64,000 nucleotides of DNA from an uncultured Gammaproteobacteria bacterium (GCA_964540055.1 CAZILC010000006.1:8228-72227); one strand, 5' to 3'. Numbered from the stretch's first letter, positions 2,647 through 41,466 are shown. Notes: generated from the sequence alone by a model not told the origin. A program made the numbers and translations.

Positions 2647-4007
2647 GACATGCGCAGCACAGACCAGTATTAGAAAAACAACTCCCCGCCTATCTAGGTT
2701 TTGTTGTCTTGCTCGTTGCCTTGGGTATAACAATTCTATTAAGCGGTAACACCGTCCTTTTTATTACGAAAGCAACTGTTGGCAGTGAACCCAAAAATAT
2801 TCAAATCAGCAACATCACCGATTCCTCCTTTACGATTTCTTATACAACCGATGTGCCGACAAATGGGTCTATTTCTTATAGCCCTGATCCATCGCTTTCC
2901 CAGATTGCTCTTGATGACAGAGATCAACAGGCGAGCGGCGCGGCCAATCATCAAGTGCATTTTATAACGGTTAAAAATTTGGCTCCTGAAACAAAATATT
3001 ATTATGCCATTAATTCCGGAAGCCAAAAAACAGAGAATAATGGTGCACCCTTTGAAATCTCTACAACGCAGTGGTCACAAGGTCAGACAGGCTCATCAGC
3101 TCCAACACTTTCAGGAAGTGTTGCCTTAAGCGATGGCAGTGTACCAACAGAGGGCATTGTCTATGTAAAAACAGACGGCTCACAACAACTCGCAACAACT
3201 ATTTTACCTGATGGCAGTTATCAACTCTCGCTTGACGGTTTGCAATCTTCAACAAGTGCCACACTTTCTCCGGATACTGTTTTACAAGTGCAAGCAGAGA
3301 CAGCAACGCAGCAATCAAGTGCAAAAGTTCTTGTCAGTGAAGCAGACCAGGTACCCAAAATCATTATTCCGCAAAATTATGATTTCACCCTCGGCACAGA
3401 GCCTTCAGTTGAGCCTTCTCAAACTGCTTCGCAATCAGGCGGCTTTCCGGAAGATACACCAGCACCTGTCAATTCTCCAGTAATAACATCACCCACCGAT
3501 CAACAGGCATATAAAGATCAGCAGCCCCTTTTTACCGGCATGGCTTTACCAAATACGGAGGTTGATATCACGATCAAATCGCAGCAAGAAATCTCTGCAA
3601 AAGTCACCAGTGATGATTCCGGCTCTTGGCAATTCCGGCCACCGGTCAGTCTCGCGCCCGGTAATCACACGATAACTATGTCGTCACTTGATGCCAATGG
3701 CATCCTCCAAACCATTTCTCGCTCCTTCACCGTGTACGCTCAGGGGAGTAAATTTATCGAACCATCAGTCTCGCCTATTGCACAACCTTCACCTATTGCA
3801 ACTCCCACAGCTGTTATGACACCAACAACAGCTCCGACTGCAACACCCACGCCAACCATATCCATCCAACCAACAATTCCTGCACCTCAGAAACCCACAC
3901 CCACGCTTGCTCCTGTTCCAAAAACCGGAAGTTCTGCTGTCATAACAGGAGTTATTTCAGGAATGGCAATACTCGGCATTGGCGCTTTACTATTCTTTGC
4001 TTTATAA
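2643..4007 (+). CDS. Multi-domain cell-surface protein with sortase-type C-terminal sorting signal
   Basis: N-terminal signal anchor; Fn3-like segment ([25 protein letters not shown]); carboxypeptidase-regulatory-like segment ([31 protein letters not shown]); Ig-like segment. A P/T-rich linker follows, then VPKTG plus a hydrophobic tail ([25 protein letters not shown]). Confidence 0.6.
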
Positions 4008-34360: not shown

Positions 34361-34792
34361 ATGATATTTATTAAAATTACGACAAAAATGTCACGAAAAC
34401 TCTTTTCATTTAGTGAGAAGGTATGGAAAACGGCAGATGTTCAATATTACGGAAAACAAATTGATTGGAAAAAAGAGATGCTCATCATTCAGGCATATAA
34501 TAAAGATGAGCTTGCCGGCGTTCTAGAACTTTATATGCAGGCCGGAGTGATGCACATACAGGATCTCGTTGTAGATTTTGCGCAGCAGAAACAAGGGATA
34601 GGAACAGCACTCATGAATAAGGCTGAAGAAATCGCAAAACAAAACAACATGCATAAAATATATCTAGAAACAGGAAAAACATGGGGAGTCAGAAAATTTT
34701 ATGAGAAACTCGGTTTTAGCCTGACAGGAGAATTACCCAAACATTATGCCAAACAAGATTACGTGGAGTACACCAAACTACTTAATTTATAA
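34361..34792 (+). CDS. GNAT-family N-acetyltransferase (start 34361 or 34388)
   Basis: QQKQGIGTALMNKAEEIA (acetyl-CoA motif A, Q/RxxGxG/A) and the C-terminal FYEKLGF. Confidence 0.8.
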   Translation: MIFIKITTKMSRKLFSFSEKVWKTADVQYYGKQIDWKKEMLIIQAYNKDELAGVLELYMQAGVMHIQDLVVDFAQQKQGIGTALMNKAEEIAKQNNMHKIYLETGKTWGVRKFYEKLGFSLTGELPKHYAKQDYVEYTKLLNL

Positions 34793-36928
34793 TTCTATTT
34801 TTCCATCTTTCACCTTAGGCTCGATGGTATCTCCAGGTTTGATTGTTCCTTCAATAATCCTCGTTGCGATTTCATCAACCAGCTTTTCCTCAATTGCCCG
34901 ACGTAGAGGGCGTGCACCAAAGACTGGATCGTAACCGACTTCTGCGAAATACATTGCAAGATCATCGCTTATTTTAAGGGATACACCATTTTCAGCCATC
35001 CGTTCTTTAACCTCATCAAGCTGCTGCTCGGCAATATGGAGAAGATCTTTGGGGGAGAGGGGATTGTAAATGACTACTGAATCTAAACGATTGAGAAATT
35101 CAGGTTTGAAATGTGCATGCAGCAACTCCCAAACACTTTTCTCAGCAGATTTTTTATCTTTGGCCTCACGAATCACATCTCCGCCAAGATTGCTCGTCAT
35201 GATAATAATAGTATTACGAAAATCAACCGTCATACCCTTGCTATCCGTGAGTCGTCCGTCATCAAATATTTGAAGAAAAATATTGAAAACCTGCGGATGA
35301 GCTTTCTCAATTTCATCAAAAAGAATTACCGAGTATGGACGACGCTTTACAGCCTCAGTAAGCTGTCCGCCTTCATCATAGCCGACATAGCCTGGAGGAG
35401 CACCAATCAATCGCGCAACGGAGTGAGACTCCATATACTCGCTCATATCAATCCTTGTCATGGCATGCTCATCAGTAAAAAGAATGCGGGCGAGTGCCTT
35501 GGCAGTTTCAGTTTTACCAACACCAGTCGAACCAAGAAAAAGAAATGACCCAATTGGCTTGTCTTTACGGCCCAATCCTGATCGAGAACGCCTGATGGCA
35601 CGAGAGACAACTGATGTAGCTTCATCCTGTCCAACGACATATTTTTTGAGTTCATCTTCTAGGTTTAGTAGTCGCTCAGATTCCGTTGAAAGGATTCTTG
35701 TTGCAGGGATACCTGTCCAGCGGGAGACAACCCGCGCAATATCATCTTCATCAACTTCTTCGCGCAGAACACGTTCCTCAGATGGAATTTTTTTCCATTG
35801 TGCATCAGCTTCCTGTAATTTCTTCTCAAGCTCAGGAATTTTGCCGTATTTAATCTCCGCAGCTTTCTGGAGATCAACAATTCGTTCAGCTTTATCCAAT
35901 TCAATACGATAAGCATCAATTTTGGCACGGATATCCTGAATTTTTTGAATCAGATCTTTTTGTGCTTTCCAACGATCTTCTATAACCGATGCTTCCTTTT
36001 TGAACTTTTCGAGTTGTTCTTCCTGTTGTAATTTGCGGGACTTAGCAATCTCTGTTTTATCACGCCGAAGTGCTGCTAATTCAATCTCTAATTGCATTAT
36101 GTGCCGCTTAAGTTCATCAAGTTCTGCCGGCATACTTTCAGTTTCAATTTTTATCGCAGCTGCTGCTTCATCAATTAGATCAATTGCTTTATCAGGCAAG
36201 AATCTTTGGGGGATATACTGAGCGGACAATTTAGCTGCAGCAATGAGTGCATTATCTGTAATTCGTATTCCATGATGTAATTCATATTTTTCCTTAATGC
36301 CGCGCAAGATTGAAATGCTATCTTCAATTGTTGGCTCATCAATAAGAACTTGTTGAAAACGACGGGCGAGTGCGGGATCTTTCTCAATATATTTACGATA
36401 TTCGGTAACAGTTGTTGCGCCGATCATACGGAGTGTGCCGCGTGCAAGGGCCGGTTTGAGGATATTGGCGGCATCATTTGAGCCTTCTGCAGCTCCCCCA
36501 CCTACTAAAGTGTGAAGCTCATCGATAAACATAATATATTTACTATCGGCTTCTTCTACAGCTTTAATCACGCCCTTAAGACGTTCTTCAAATTCACCCC
36601 GGAATTTTGCACCAGCTAGTAATAATGCAAAATCCAATACGACAACTTCTTTATCTTTAAGTGGTGTTGGAACCGCATTTTCAACTATTTTTTGGGCCAA
36701 ACCTTCAACAATTGCTGTCTTACCAACGCCAGGATCGCCAATGAGGACGGGATTATTTTTCGTCCGACGCGATAATATCTCCATTACCCGACGAATTTCC
36801 ACTTCGCGACCAATGACAGGATCGATCTTACCGGAGCGTGCAGAATCGGTTAAATTAATGGTAAATTTCTTTAATGCAACGAGTGGCTCAACCGGTTTGA
36901 GAAAGTCTGGGACTTGATTACTATCCAT
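34787..36928 (-). CDS. clpB: ClpB-type AAA+ disaggregase lacking the N-terminal Clp_N domain
   Basis: Two AAA modules ([15 protein letters not shown]; [15 protein letters not shown]), a long coiled-coil M-domain between them, and the signature [25 protein letters not shown]. At 713 aa it starts only about 30 aa before NBD1. Confidence 0.9.
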
Positions 36929-36972
36929 ACTACCCTATTTTAGAATTAGCAAACTAAGTTGTCAAGTGCTAA
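36926..36972 (-). promoter_or_regulatory. clpB promoter (TTGACA-N17-TAAAAT-N8-ATG) overlapped by a CIRCE-like inverted repeat
   Basis: Minus strand reads TTAGCACTTGACAACTTAGTTTGCTAATTCTAAAATAGGGTAGTATG. The inverted repeat TTAGCACTT-N9-GTTTGCTAA compares with the CIRCE consensus TTAGCACTC-N9-GAGTGCTAA. Confidence 0.5.
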
Positions 36973-37079
36973 AGTTAAAGGATAAATAATCCTCCCTATC
37001 GGACAGGTGCGGTAAATACGGTAAAAAATGAACTCAATACTCCTAAGATGTGTTTTTCGATAAATGCTAACATGATTTT

Positions 37080-37254
37080 CTTTAGTCCCCTCCTCTCTTC
37101 AGTTTTGGGGCAGCGAGTTAATTTTAGGAATGGCTATCAGTCATAACCGAGCGTTGGTCTCTTGCGAGGTTCGCTTCAGAATGGCTTAGTGATAACCGCT
37201 CCCCTTTTCACGATGCATCATAGACATCTTAAATATCATATGATGTGGGACTAA
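37080..37254 (+). ncRNA. Candidate structured small RNA (unclassified; 6S-like architecture is one hypothesis)
   Basis: GC-rich patch in a 516-bp ORF-free gap. Nested helices: 37082-37089/37247-37254; 37107-37115/37197-37204; an apical hairpin at 37149-37176; a side hairpin at 37215-37246. Five G-U pairs exist only on the + strand. TGCTAACAT ends at 37073. Confidence 0.35.
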
Positions 37255-37332
37255 GAAATACGCAAATAGTACGTAAGAATTTGGCAAGAAATTTAATTTG
37301 TGATATACTATAGTATAAAGTGTTGTAAATAT

Positions 37333-37361
37333 TTGACAACTAAGTTAAAAAGTTGTGTAAT
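37333..37361 (+). promoter_or_regulatory. Promoter candidate for gdh-proBAC
   Basis: TTGACA (37333-37338), a 17-nt spacer, then TGTAAT, about 85 nt upstream of the gdh ATG. Confidence 0.35.
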
Positions 37362-37444
37362 ATAAAAATACTCAAGATTTTATAGTCATATTCTCTCTAT
37401 AAAAAGGTATTAAAAGTAACCACTTAGTTAGCAAATAGCTAAAT

Positions 37445-38686
37445 ATGTATACAAATAATCCTTGGACTCGTGCCCAAAGACAACTGAAGAAAAATGCGTC
37501 GATGTTATCAATCTCACCTCTTCTCGTCGAGCGATTAACTCATCCCCAACGAGTCATCGAAGTAGCACTCCCTGTCGCATTGGAAGACGGAACAGTAAAA
37601 ACATTTATGGGCTACCGTGTACAACACAGTAATATTAGAGGCCCATTTAAAGGCGGTCTTCGTTATCACTCTGATGTATCAATGGATGAAGTTAAAGCTC
37701 TCGCCTTCTGGATGACGATGAAAAATGCAGTTGTTGATGTACCATTTGGTGGTGGAAAAGGTGGGATAACTGTTGATCCAAAACAATTAACAGAAAACGA
37801 TTTAAAAAATCTTACTACCCTCTTTACCAGTCGTCTGGGCGGCAATATAGGCCCACAAATTGATGTTCCGGCACCTGATGTTAATACTAATCCAAAAGTT
37901 ATGTCATGGATCGCCAATGAATATAGCAAAAGTGCTGGCAAGGACAGCCTCGCTGTCGTTACCGGAAAACCCCTTGATAAAGGTGGTTCTTTGGGAAGGA
38001 CTGAGGCAACGGGGCTGGGTGGAGCGTATGTTTTATTATATGCTTTAAAAAAACTCAATAAAAATCCTAAAAATTTAACTGTTGCTATACAAGGATTTGG
38101 GAATGTTGGCCGTTATGTTGCCGAATTCCTCACCCAATTCGGACTTAAAATTGTTGCAGTTTCAGATTCAAAAAGCGGTATCTATCTTCCAAGTGGCATT
38201 AAAGATATTGCGATGCTTGAAAATTATAAAAAGGAAAAGGGTACGCTTGAAGGCTTTTCCTCTGCAGCGAAAATTACTCCTAAAGAGTTACTCAAGCTTC
38301 CAGTTGATATCGTAATTCCTGCAGCTTTGGAAAATGTAATTACCGAAGATAACGCCCAAAAAATTAAGGCATCTATTATTCTTGAGCTTGCAAATGGACC
38401 CACAACTATTGAAGCTGATACTATTCTTCAGAATAAAAATATAAAAGTTATTCCTGATATTCTTGCGAATGCAGGTGGAGTTGCAGTGAGTTATTTTGAA
38501 TGGTATCAAAATATCAATACTATTCACTGGACAAAAGAAGAAGTTTTTAAAAAGTTAAAAAAGAAAATGGATGTCGCAACAAAAGAAGTTTTTGCTTTTA
38601 GCACAAAACATCACGTACCTCTTCGTGATGCAGCGTATTTACTTGCCCTGACACGTATTCAAAAAGAATGGGAAACTCGTAGCTGA
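37445..38686 (+). CDS. gdhA: Glutamate dehydrogenase (Glu/Leu/Phe/Val dehydrogenase family)
   Basis: FKGGLRYH, PFGGGKGG and GFGNVG (Rossmann) motifs. Confidence 0.95.
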   Translation: MYTNNPWTRAQRQLKKNASMLSISPLLVERLTHPQRVIEVALPVALEDGTVKTFMGYRVQHSNIRGPFKGGLRYHSDVSMDEVKALAFWMTMKNAVVDVPFGGGKGGITVDPKQLTENDLKNLTTLFTSRLGGNIGPQIDVPAPDVNTNPKVMSWIANEYSKSAGKDSLAVVTGKPLDKGGSLGRTEATGLGGAYVLLYALKKLNKNPKNLTVAIQGFGNVGRYVAEFLTQFGLKIVAVSDSKSGIYLPSGIKDIAMLENYKKEKGTLEGFSSAAKITPKELLKLPVDIVIPAALENVITEDNAQKIKASIILELANGPTTIEADTILQNKNIKVIPDILANAGGVAVSYFEWYQNINTIHWTKEEVFKKLKKKMDVATKEVFAFSTKHHVPLRDAAYLLALTRIQKEWETRS

Positions 38687-38706
38687 GATCTCTAAAGAGG
38701 AACAAA

Positions 38707-39447
38707 ATGAAAAAAGTAGTAGTAAAATTAGGAAGAAGTATCGCAACATCTGAGAATAACACGATTGATGAAAATCAATTTGAAAATCTCTCTAAGCAAA
38801 TAAAATTACTTCACGAACGCAACATTTTTGTTATTCTTGTTGTATCTGCTGCAGTATCATGCGGCGAACAAGAACTAGGACTGATCGGTCCATATTCTGT
38901 AACAAAACATCTTGTTGCCGGAGTCGGTCAGGCAGCCATTATGGCAGATTTACATCGTATTTTCCGAAAAAATCATTTAAAAATTGCCCAATTGCTCGTG
39001 ACAAAAAGTGACTTACAAGAACGGCAAAAACGCGAAAATATTAAACAAGTTATCCACCAAGCTGCTGAAAGAAATATTGTCTTGGTAGTAAATGAAAATG
39101 ATATCGCTGAGCTGCATAGTTTTGAAGGCAATGATTATCTCGCAGCAGAAATTGCCAAACTCGTTCACGCAGATAGTCTCCTCTTTCTCACCGATGTCCA
39201 GGGAGTTTTAGATGATCATATGCAAGTCATGAAAGTGTATTCAAAAAATAAGAGCCTTGCTCAAGTTATCAAAACGAATGGTAGAGGTGCCGTAGGAGGC
39301 ATGCAAGCAAAACTCGACTCAGCAACAAGTGCTGCGACAAATGGTATAGACACATGGATTTCTAATGGAAGAATGCAAAATCTTCTTATTAGAATACTTC
39401 TTGAGAATGAACACATCGGCACAAAGATCTCAAATGACACGTTATGA
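38707..39447 (+). CDS. proB: Glutamate 5-kinase (no PUA domain)
   Basis: Amino-acid-kinase fold (VVKLGRS...VVSAAVSCG...NENDIAEL) located upstream of proA and proC. An AAGAGGA SD-like element precedes the ATG. Confidence 0.75.
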   Translation: MKKVVVKLGRSIATSENNTIDENQFENLSKQIKLLHERNIFVILVVSAAVSCGEQELGLIGPYSVTKHLVAGVGQAAIMADLHRIFRKNHLKIAQLLVTKSDLQERQKRENIKQVIHQAAERNIVLVVNENDIAELHSFEGNDYLAAEIAKLVHADSLLFLTDVQGVLDDHMQVMKVYSKNKSLAQVIKTNGRGAVGGMQAKLDSATSAATNGIDTWISNGRMQNLLIRILLENEHIGTKISNDTL

Positions 39448-40691
39448 ATGACCTTGATGGCAAATTAAAAAAAGCAAAACAGGCTTCTTTTGAAATAGCC
39501 AAACTTACAGCAAAGAATAAAGCAACCCTCCTTCTTACAATTGCAGCAACTTTAAGACAACACAAAAATGAAATTCTTGAAGCAAATGCTTTGGATGTTT
39601 CTCAAACAAAAGAAAAAGGAGCAAGCAGCGCATTTATTGATAGACTAACCCTCTCAGAAAAAGGCTTTGCGGGGATGATTTCCCAACTTGAAACCGTTGC
39701 TCACTTACCTGAAGTACTTGATGAAGTTATTGAAGAAAGAACACTTACGAATGGTGTGCTTTTAAAAAAAGAAAGATTTCCCCTTGGCCTTATTGCTATG
39801 ATTTATGAATCCCGTCCAAATGTAACTGTTGATGCAGTAGGATTATGTCTTAAAGCTGGAAATGCGGTAATTCTTAAAGGTGGATCAGAGGCTGCACATA
39901 CCAATAGAATGCTCGTGCATTATATCCATGAAGTGCTTACCCAACACCAGATCTCACAAGCAGCGGTTACTCTTTTGGATAAAGCAACTCATGCAGATAT
40001 TGATGAAATGCTTACACGAAATGATGTTATTGATGTTGTAATTCCAAGAGGAAGTTACGCACTTACCACAGCTGTAGCAAACAAATCCCGTATACCTATA
40101 CTCTATCATTCCGCTGGAGGAGCACGGATGTATGTTGATAAAAGTGCTGATATAGAACAAGCGCTTGAGATATGTGTAAACGCAAAAACAAATAGAACAG
40201 GCGTATGTAATGCCCTTGATATGGTCCTCGTTCACAAAGAAGTTGCTGAAAAATTTCTTAAGAAGTTAGATGAAGTAATAACTGCAAAAGGATTTGAAAT
40301 CCGCGCAGATGCAAGAGCAAGAGAATATATGCCTAATGCAAAACAAGCAGCGGAGAAAGATTTTTCAACGGAATTTTTGGATACTATATTGGCAGTAAAA
40401 ATTGTTGATGATGCACCGGAAGCGATACAATTTATTAAAACCCATACCCATGGTCATACAGAAATTCTTGCGACCAAAGATGAGGATATTGTTAACACAT
40501 TTATCCATGAGATAGATGCGGCAGGACTCATGATTAACTGCTCTTCTCGTCTGCATGATGGCGGAGAATTTGAAATGGGCGCTGAGATGGGTACTGCAAC
40601 AGGAAAACTTCATGCGCGTGGTCCCGTGGGCGTACGTGAGCTAACAACGTATAAGTGGATTGCATTTGGAAATGGACAAATAAAGCAATAA
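39444..40691 (+). CDS. proA: Gamma-glutamyl phosphate reductase
   Basis: Aldehyde-dehydrogenase-type protein with typical ProA regions (IYESRPNVTVDA, ILKGGSEA, NAKTNRTGVCNALD). ATGA overlap with proB. Confidence 0.9.
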   Translation: MNDLDGKLKKAKQASFEIAKLTAKNKATLLLTIAATLRQHKNEILEANALDVSQTKEKGASSAFIDRLTLSEKGFAGMISQLETVAHLPEVLDEVIEERTLTNGVLLKKERFPLGLIAMIYESRPNVTVDAVGLCLKAGNAVILKGGSEAAHTNRMLVHYIHEVLTQHQISQAAVTLLDKATHADIDEMLTRNDVIDVVIPRGSYALTTAVANKSRIPILYHSAGGARMYVDKSADIEQALEICVNAKTNRTGVCNALDMVLVHKEVAEKFLKKLDEVITAKGFEIRADARAREYMPNAKQAAEKDFSTEFLDTILAVKIVDDAPEAIQFIKTHTHGHTEILATKDEDIVNTFIHEIDAAGLMINCSSRLHDGGEFEMGAEMGTATGKLHARGPVGVRELTTYKWIAFGNGQIKQ

Positions 40692-40695
40692 TACA

Positions 40696-41466
40696 ATGCG
40701 TGAGCGAATTGCAATCATCGGGTCAGGAAACATGGGGCAAGCCATCGCTCGTGGACTGCTAGATAACAAAATAATTACCCAACAACAACTTTTCTTAACG
40801 AATTCTCAAACCGGCAATAAAGAGGCTATCACAAAAGCAGATATTATTATTTTGGCAGTAAAACCGCAAAATAAAGATACTGTCTTTGAAGAAATAAAAG
40901 AAGTAGTCACTAATCAACTTATAATATCAGTAATGGCCGGAATCACCATCGAATCGATCCAAAACTCACTTGGTGGAAAAAATAGCATAATTCGAGTGAT
41001 GCCAAATATTGCGGCAAAGATTGGCAAATCTATGTCTGTCTGGATAAAAAATCCACAAGTTTCCTCGACACAAACTGAGAAAATCAAACTAATACTTGAA
41101 GCCATTGGCCAGCAACTGGAATTGCACACAGAAGATCAAATCGATAAAGCAACAGCGATTTCAGGCAGCGGACCTGCTTACATTTTTTATCTTACAGAAA
41201 TTTTGGAAAATGCTGCTATAAAAATTGGGTTTTCTGACCGAGAGGCAAAATTATTAGCTGAACAAACTCTCATAGGAAGCGCTGAATTGTTACAGAAATC
41301 AAAAGAATCAGCAACAAATTTACGAAGTGCTGTTACGTCCAAAGGCGGTACAACTGAAGCTGCGATAACTATCTTACAGAAAGAAAATATACAGAATATT
41401 TTTAGCAAAGCTATTACAGCAGCATATACCAGAGCTAAAAAGCTCGGGGAAAACCTACGTAAGTAA
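40696..41466 (+). CDS. proC: Pyrroline-5-carboxylate reductase
   Basis: IAIIGSGNMGQAIARGL Rossmann motif and the C-terminal SKGGTTEAAI signature. Confidence 0.9.
   Translation: MRERIAIIGSGNMGQAIARGLLDNKIITQQQLFLTNSQTGNKEAITKADIIILAVKPQNKDTVFEEIKEVVTNQLIISVMAGITIESIQNSLGGKNSIIRVMPNIAAKIGKSMSVWIKNPQVSSTQTEKIKLILEAIGQQLELHTEDQIDKATAISGSGPAYIFYLTEILENAAIKIGFSDREAKLLAEQTLIGSAELLQKSKESATNLRSAVTSKGGTTEAAITILQKENIQNIFSKAITAAYTRAKKLGENLRK

Follow-up and report, generated by a model that had tools for sequence, protein, structure and literature searches.

Several kinds of control element in bacteria resemble the region described here. RNA thermometers such as ROSE and FourU are structured 5′ leaders that stand before chaperone genes, and they conserve shape rather than sequence. 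Riboswitches with a translational platform consist of a conserved, covarying fold followed by a variable linker and a Shine-Dalgarno (SD) sequence, and in many of their classes the length of an apical stem varies. Leader or arrest peptides (TnaC, SecM, MifM and the Erm leaders) are encoded by short open reading frames (ORFs), of 24 codons in TnaC, and regulatory nascent peptides typically have their conserved part at the C-terminal end, close to the stop codon. The gap upstream of clpB, the gene for the main disaggregase, in a 64-kb stretch of DNA from an uncultured bacterium (64,000 nucleotides; hereafter the window) holds a conserved element that shares features with each of these. We think it probable that this element is a new leader that acts in cis on clpB, includes a regulatory upstream ORF (uORF) and is read on the minus strand, and not an independent small RNA (sRNA) of the plus strand. 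A literature search turned up no account of a leader or uORF at clpB, or of such a structured RNA, in Patescibacteria or elsewhere.

The gap (36929-37444; positions are those of the 64-kb window, plus is the strand as given and minus is the clpB strand) lies between clpB on the minus strand (34787-36928) and a gdh-proB-proA operon on the plus strand, which starts at 37445. Homologous loci were collected from ClpB relatives that are 79-92% identical (eight loci) and from a pattern scan, to give 11 loci in all, whose ClpBs are 79-92% identical to that of the window. Each of the 11 has a non-coding stretch of 400-840 bp upstream of clpB that can be aligned to the window gap, and two further ClpB relatives have gaps of 454 and 499 bp in the same place. 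The gene on the far side differs from locus to locus: it may be gdh, an aminotransferase, a Pyr_redox protein, a GATase, a co-oriented CAP-domain gene or an unnamed protein, and it is gdh only in the window, in L001 and probably in L093. L001, whose Gdh is 85% identical, retains the clpB-gap-gdh order, and its gap aligns from clpB to about 37290. Synteny followed from the gdh side ends after this locus, since the next gdh relatives (P0003 and P0004) have other neighbours, and those gdh relatives that do not adjoin clpB lack the region. When a degenerate pattern of the core sequence was run against a metagenome collection, it found clpB-upstream sites only, plus one chance match in GC-rich coding sequence; a contig scan with the whole ClpB returned, among the matches listed, ClpBs of other phyla at 54-59% identity and no member of the close clade. 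The element is single-copy and always upstream of clpB across loci whose ClpB is 79-100% identical to that of the window, and no second copy or repeat family was found within the 64 kb. By comparison of loci, then, the conserved region is linked to clpB and not to gdh; as it stays with clpB while the far-side gene changes, it belongs to clpB and would be read on the minus strand.

The core of the element is an irregular hairpin of 65 nucleotides (nt) with three helices (P1-P2-P3; 37132-37197, minus strand). P1 joins GGUUAUCA (37197-37190) to UGAUAGCC (37139-37132), and across the aligned leaders it is written GGUUAUCA/UGAUAACC. P2 joins CAUU-CUGA-A-GCG (37183-37172) to CGC-UCGG-U-UAUG (37153-37142); its form across the leaders is CAUU-CUGA-A-GCG/CGC-UCAG-U-AAUG, and its bulges are conserved. 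P3 (CUC-GCAA-GAG, 37168-37159) is closed by a GNRA tetraloop, with a stem of 2-3 bp and a loop that reads GCAA, GAAA or GUAA in six of the nine distinct sequences. Standard pairs occupy 95.3% of the cells in the P1-P3 alignment, against 88.3% in shuffled alignments, and 10 of the 22 pairs differ on both sides, a count that averaged 2.3 ± 1.2 in shuffles and was reached by none of 500. Sliding the structures by 1-3 columns left 0-1 pairs changed on both sides and 22-40% pairing. The compensatory changes include CUGA/UCAG to CCGG/CCGG in P2b of L084, GCG/CGC to UCG/CGA in P2c of L088, and GGUUAUCA/UGAUAACC to AAUAGG/CCUAUU in P1 of L095. A covariance model (R1) made from eight sequences, with the most divergent member (L095) left out, gives the window hairpin 82 bits and known members 67-84 bits, and it recovers L095 at E = 0.007. 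It has no other match in the 64-kb window and none in 38 leader-less control loci (35 whose clpB belongs to other phyla, two that have gdh alone and one truncated duplicate).

The locus L096, whose ClpB is 79% identical, retains the P1 and P2 strands and has exchanged P3 for a multi-hairpin insertion of about 125 nt, and its P1 (GGUUAUAGG/CCUUAUAACC) still closes the minimum free energy (MFE) fold (z = -4.7). Functional RNAs typically combine a conserved basal helix with an apical part of variable length, a pattern for which a DNA-level explanation is hard to find. On this comparative evidence the core hairpin is a real, covarying structure. A smaller hairpin, P0 (37212-37228, minus strand; GAUGU-N7-GCAUC in the window), has the form GAUGU...ACAUC in 8 of the 11 loci. 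Its sequence is conserved with almost no covariation, so that it is a candidate structure.

Several features indicate the strand on which the hairpin is read. In the structure-based alignment the conserved helices hold 10 G·U cells on the minus strand, as against 2 A·C cells, which would become G·U on the plus strand; counted as independent events and with L096 included, the figures are about 9 and 2 (one-sided binomial about 0.03). The apical loops GCAA, GAAA and GUAA are GNRA loops on the clpB strand only, and it is on this strand that an SD and a conserved ORF follow directly downstream of the hairpin. For these reasons, together with the linkage to clpB, the minus strand is very probably the sense strand. 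The minus-strand fold of 37080-37254, the segment in which a structured RNA had been proposed, was also matched by none of 200 dinucleotide shuffles (z = -3.5), and the plus-strand fold by 14 of 200 (z = -1.6).

The ORF downstream of the hairpin (36996-37073, minus strand; MLAFIEKHILGVLSSFFTVFTAPVR) has 25 codons and a TAG stop. It is open in all 11 loci, with 25 codons in eight of them and 28, 29 and 30 in three others; these differences of +3, +4 and +5 codons are all in frame. Among the six sequences that can be aligned directly, the variable sites fall 11, 8 and 17 times in the first, second and third codon position, and the ratio of nonsynonymous to synonymous differences (pN/pS) is 0.18-0.57 in all 15 pairs. 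The consensus peptide is M-I-x-F-I-E-K-[HQ]-I-x-x-[VI]-[LF]-x-S-F-F-x-V-F-S-A-P-[VI]-[RH]-stop, and the L096 peptide is MREKIRQFLQELYSSFFILWSTPVR. Conservation is strongest at the C-terminus by the stop (SFFxVFSAPV[R/H]-stop). The peptide is rich in aromatic and basic residues; its N-terminal half is charged, no more than about 16 of its residues are hydrophobic, and it matched no Pfam or NCBIfam family. Read from codon-position and substitution patterns, the mini-ORF carries a coding signature, and what is found is what would be looked for in a regulatory leader peptide: a conserved short ORF, with its own SD, just upstream of clpB. In L085 (approximately 3747-3875) an in-frame ATG within P2 would lengthen the mini-ORF to 42 codons; because other loci do not share the additional codons, translation more likely begins at the homologous ATG that follows the SD.

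The SD itself (AGGAGGGG, 37087-37094, minus strand) is part of the purine tract GAAGAGAGGAGGGGA and precedes the ATG of the mini-ORF by 13 nt; every locus has GGAGG or GGGGGG at 2-14 nt upstream of this ATG. A variable linker, 10-55 nt across loci on the minus strand, separates it from the core hairpin. On the other side of the hairpin is a pyrimidine-rich 5′ block of 41 nt (37251-37291, minus strand; TTTCTTGCCAAATTCTTACGTACTATTTGCGTATTTCTTAG) with the pattern TTTCTTGCCnAATCCTTACGyAyTnTTTGCGTATTTCTTAG. In alignments A3 and A4 no other stretch outside the helices is as well conserved, and the block holds a small palindrome or hairpin, TACG..CGTA. The block itself does not fit sigma-70 spacing; candidate roles are the 5′ end of the leader RNA, an anti-SD, an operator or an unusual promoter. 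The block also contains ATCCTTACG and the longer palindrome TACGCA-N6-TGCGTA, the latter lost in L088 and L092, and outside P2 its conservation exceeds that of all else in the gap. In partition-function (ensemble) folding the SD pairs mainly with the 5′ block in seven of nine leaders and, in the window and its closest relative L091, with the tract after P1. Specific anti-SD pairing with either partner gained no support from the duplex energies, which were no better than those of shuffles; occlusion of the SD is possible on grounds of base composition only.

Between the mini-ORF and clpB lies a second set of signals. A sigma-70-type promoter (TTGACA-17-TAAAAT; 36937-36965, minus strand) matches 11 of 12 consensus positions, and both hexamers are present in all 11 loci, the -10 being TACAAT in L091 and TATAAT in L096. 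The end of the -10 is 8 nt from the clpB ATG in the window and 8-10 nt in 10 loci, and a -10 at such a distance predicts a leaderless or nearly leaderless clpB mRNA; L096 is the exception, with a clpB 5′ untranslated region (UTR) of about 85 nt. Overlapping this promoter is an inverted repeat, TTAGCA-N15-TGCTAA (36946-36972, 27 bp overall), which resembles the CIRCE operator of HrcA in its length, in its TTAGCA...TGCTAA ends and in its position over a sigma-70 promoter of a chaperone gene. The repeat matches 15 of 18 arm positions of TTAGCACTC-N9-GAGTGCTAA in the window and fewer in relatives, and it departs from CIRCE in that the -35 hexamer takes the place of the inner bases of its arms. Its outer arms are conserved in all loci, with L096 changed at both ends to CTAGCA..TGCTAG. 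The likeness to CIRCE concerns this neighbouring element and not the segment with the hairpin. No terminator was found in the 53-69 nt between the mini-ORF stop and the clpB ATG, where the CIRCE-like repeat is the sole hairpin and leaves the clpB start outside it.

Given this arrangement, the reading that we favour can be set out as a putative mechanism. Transcription would start at or just upstream of the 41-nt block, at about 37291-37305, and the transcript would carry P0, the 65-nt hairpin, a strong SD and a translated 25-codon uORF, and would run on into clpB because no terminator follows the uORF stop. The folded domain may act as a sensor of temperature, of a protein (for example a chaperone) or of a small ligand, and would set the efficiency of uORF translation; that translation, or stalling at SFFxVFSAPV[R/H]-stop, would in turn set the yield of ClpB from the long transcript. 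The second promoter, under CIRCE-like control and adjoining clpB, would provide independent, nearly leaderless expression. What the comparison shows directly is that the region is conserved and tied to clpB, that its hairpin covaries and that the uORF has the pattern of a coding sequence; transcription as one RNA, the direction of regulation and the signal are inferred. As for the signal, a temperature-dependent or SD-occluding leader is a tentative candidate, and just as tentative is the view that there is no signal and that the hairpin is a structural or stability element. Protein binding is possible at slightly lower probability, and a small-ligand riboswitch is doubtful. That the bulges and loops of P2 are so strongly conserved in sequence speaks for a specific partner, protein or ligand, over a pure thermometer.

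Several observations count against this proposal and temper it. First, the promoter between the mini-ORF and clpB is strong and invariant, so clpB may be transcribed independently of the leader, and leader and mini-ORF could be a separate unit. Second, the long leader-uORF-clpB transcript and its start site are predictions from sequence, and no sigma-70 -35/-10 promoter was found at a consistent distance upstream of the 5′ block. Third, the duplexes of SD and block have energies of -8.6 to -14.1 kcal/mol, which correspond to z of -1.5 to +1.1 against dinucleotide-shuffled blocks, and L087 and L092 lack the pyrimidine tract after P1. Fourth, there are only ten distinct sequences: the covariation in P1 comes mostly from L095 and L088 and that in P2 from L084 and L088, and the alignment (A6) was fitted to the covariance model. 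Finally, RNAalifold gives -17.7 for the sense strand and -16.1 for the antisense strand, and the MFE of single sequences is often lower on the antisense strand; since the RNAalifold values are so near and the single-sequence energies often favour antisense, folding energy is uninformative as to strand.

In its layout the element behaves as a cis-regulatory leader with a uORF would. Like a thermometer, it is a structured 5′ leader before a chaperone gene whose SD may be hidden by a pyrimidine-rich partner. Unlike a thermometer, it has a conserved hairpin that lies 40-90 nt upstream of the SD and excludes it (in the window the hairpin ends 37 nt upstream of the SD, 37132 against 37094), the bulge and loop sequence of this hairpin is highly conserved, the pairing of the SD is indistinguishable from a composition effect, the gene directly controlled would be the uORF and not the chaperone gene, and no thermometer model in Rfam matched. 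The order of conserved covarying fold, variable linker and SD is aptamer-like, and the apical insertion in L096 recalls the variable stems of riboswitches; however, the element occurs in a single gene context, no ligand suggests itself, it has one hairpin without a multi-stem junction, and it matched no riboswitch class in Rfam. With leader and arrest peptides it shares an ORF of 25-30 codons just upstream, conserved in sequence and most so at the C-terminus by the stop, but no terminator/antiterminator pair, as in classical attenuators, and no rut-like feature was recognised, there is no hairpin-masked downstream SD for a stalled ribosome to open, a full promoter lies between uORF and clpB, and in Pfam and NCBIfam the peptide shows no similarity to known leader peptides. 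Rfam 15 gave no match at gathering score anywhere in the window, whether a tRNA, an rRNA or any other family; at E <= 10 nothing credible appeared on either strand of 36900-37480 (SpF36 and RT-7, at E 8-9, are far below threshold), and the ten homologous loci gave no match either.

The alternative that survives best, although we regard it as unlikely, is that the mini-ORF, preceded by a structured 5′ UTR, is a small-protein gene in its own right and only happens to sit beside clpB, its peptide acting in trans with no control in cis. Such a peptide may be a partner or substrate-like modulator of ClpB, which in this clade lacks its N-terminal domain, or a small membrane peptide. The purifying selection on the peptide, its aromatic and basic residues and the invariant promoter that clpB has downstream of the ORF all fit this explanation. 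Against it, the absence of a terminator before clpB means that read-through is expected, 25 residues is very short for a stable protein, and conservation peaks at the C-terminus, beside the stop codon, where regulatory peptides are conserved.

A system like a type I toxin-antitoxin is considerably less probable. The mini-ORF would here be the mRNA of a hydrophobic peptide whose SD is hidden by the 5′ UTR, and an antisense RNA of the plus strand, roughly the transcript of the first-pass annotation discussed below, would repress it. In favour are the small size and partly hydrophobic character of the peptide and a structured leader in which the SD may be hidden, and the reverse complement of ATG-ATA is TATCAT, a -10-like hexamer on the plus strand in most loci. 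This hexamer, however, is forced by the Met-Ile/Leu codons and has no conserved -35 or TG with it, so that there is no conserved antisense promoter; the G·U pairs favour the sense strand, the N-terminal half of the peptide is charged with few hydrophobic residues in all, and the element is single-copy and fixed upstream of clpB, neither mobile nor multi-copy.

Still less probable is the reading given by a first-pass annotation made from the window alone, which described a free-standing plus-strand RNA of about 175 nt (37080-37254) with a layout like that of 6S RNA, or with an anti-SD seed. Much of what it described is there. The segment is GC-rich (44.6%, against 33% and 24% in its flanks and 37.7% in the window as a whole); the terminal helix of UUAGUCCC (37082-37089) with GGGACUAA (37247-37254), the helix of GGGGCAGCG (37107-37115) with CGCUCCCC (37197-37204), the apical hairpin (37149-37176) and a further hairpin (37215-37246) are all present at these coordinates; the CCUCC tract is present; and the core hairpin also forms on the plus strand, with similar alifold energy. 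A homologous segment and covariation in relatives, whose lack was to have counted against a structured RNA, were both found. The apical hairpin and the inner arms correspond to P3, P2 and P1 and are kept in relatives, while the two outer helices are not: over ten leaders they have 52% of their cells paired, a level that 144 of 500 shuffles reach and that does not differ from slid controls (40-50%), in a MAFFT alignment that is loose in the variable parts where they lie, and they occur only in the window and, partly, in L091. A conserved and covarying structured RNA is thus the part of the proposal that holds, and its strand, boundaries and RNA class have to be revised.

The gap had been described as free of ORFs, and the 25-codon frame that it contains on the minus strand falls below a listing limit of 30 amino acids. 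The extended -10 proposed as the plus-strand promoter (TGCTAACAT) is the reverse complement of ATG-TTA-GCA at the start of the mini-ORF, and its TG is absent in several relatives; the CCUCC put forward as an anti-SD seed is the complement of the SD of the mini-ORF. G-U pairs in the single-sequence fold had been taken to favour the plus strand, whereas the conserved helices show the reverse, as do the GNRA loops. A direct repeat between the internal arms proves to consist of both strands of helices P1 and P2a, which are near-palindromic, and is not kept as a repeat in L001 or other relatives. As for 6S RNA, the likeness (about 175 nt, a closing stem and an internal loop) belongs to the window-only fold; neither the window nor the ten homologous loci match RF00013 or another Rfam family, the closing stem is not conserved, and the element is read from the opposite strand, fixed beside clpB and followed by an SD and an ORF. 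With a plus-strand fold no better than shuffles and an element that follows clpB and not gdh, little speaks for a free-standing sRNA. The case illustrates that a fold computed from one window can point to the wrong strand, and that a gap without listed ORFs can hide a conserved gene of 25 codons. Equally improbable is a purely DNA-level regulatory region, in which the blocks and repeats are operators of heat-shock regulators and no RNA structure is functional: the position between divergent genes and upstream of a heat-shock gene, and the palindromes (TACGCA-N6-TGCGTA and the CIRCE-like repeat), fit it, but an operator does not explain why compensatory changes keep P1 strands some 50 nt apart complementary, in L096 across a 170-nt insertion, the tolerance of G·U is strand-specific, and the SD and ORF signature indicates a translated RNA.

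The gene that accompanies the leader encodes a ClpB of 713 amino acids (aa) without the N-terminal domain, the match to the NCBIfam ClpB profile starting at position 154 of 853. All of at least 120 relatives among the matches listed, at 78-92% identity, share this short form (705-727 aa, no N-domain), and it is therefore the normal form of the clade and no truncation. The length of the gap had suggested that it might be a remnant of the missing domain; this idea was ruled out, as there is no long minus-strand frame, and the conserved pieces of the gap are the helix set and the 25-codon ORF, not remains of an N-domain. ClpB relatives at 79-92% identity are numerous, and the source name of one (P0143) is 'Candidatus Saccharimonadales'; the best named Gdh matches are Patescibacteria (Daviesbacteria and Levybacteria, 60-67% identity), with one further relative at 85%. 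Our label for the group, Patescibacteria-like, rests on these source names of ClpB and Gdh matches.

Some observations on the surroundings may be added. On the plus strand, gdh-proB-proA and then a proC-like gene (37445-41466) make up a route from glutamate to proline, and in L001 the fourth gene of the corresponding operon has P5CR domains. Patescibacteria are usually without amino-acid biosynthesis, yet they are the best named relatives of the genome that carries these genes. The chromosome of one ClpB relative, L088, is 1.61 Mb, large for Patescibacteria. Within 1-3 kb downstream of clpB an RNase H gene recurs across the clade, often with NUDIX and GNAT genes as well (L084, L085, L087, L088, L095 and L096); in the window a GNAT gene (34361-34792) lies on the strand opposite to clpB and overlaps the end of clpB by 6 nt.

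To our knowledge, the regulation of genes in Patescibacteria (candidate phyla radiation) has hardly been described. The most specific form of the leader proposal is a switch that senses proteostasis, in which the hairpin binds a chaperone or aggregation factor, or senses temperature, and the nascent peptide stalls the ribosome and so decides the yield of ClpB. We hold this form to be a long shot; if true, a clade of Patescibacteria would have its own 'monitoring' uORF for a disaggregase, a switch of a kind not yet described. The RNA motif and the small-peptide family are in any case absent from Rfam 15, Pfam and NCBIfam, and a covarying leader RNA with a mini-ORF before the main disaggregase offers an entry point to heat-shock and proteostasis control in these organisms.

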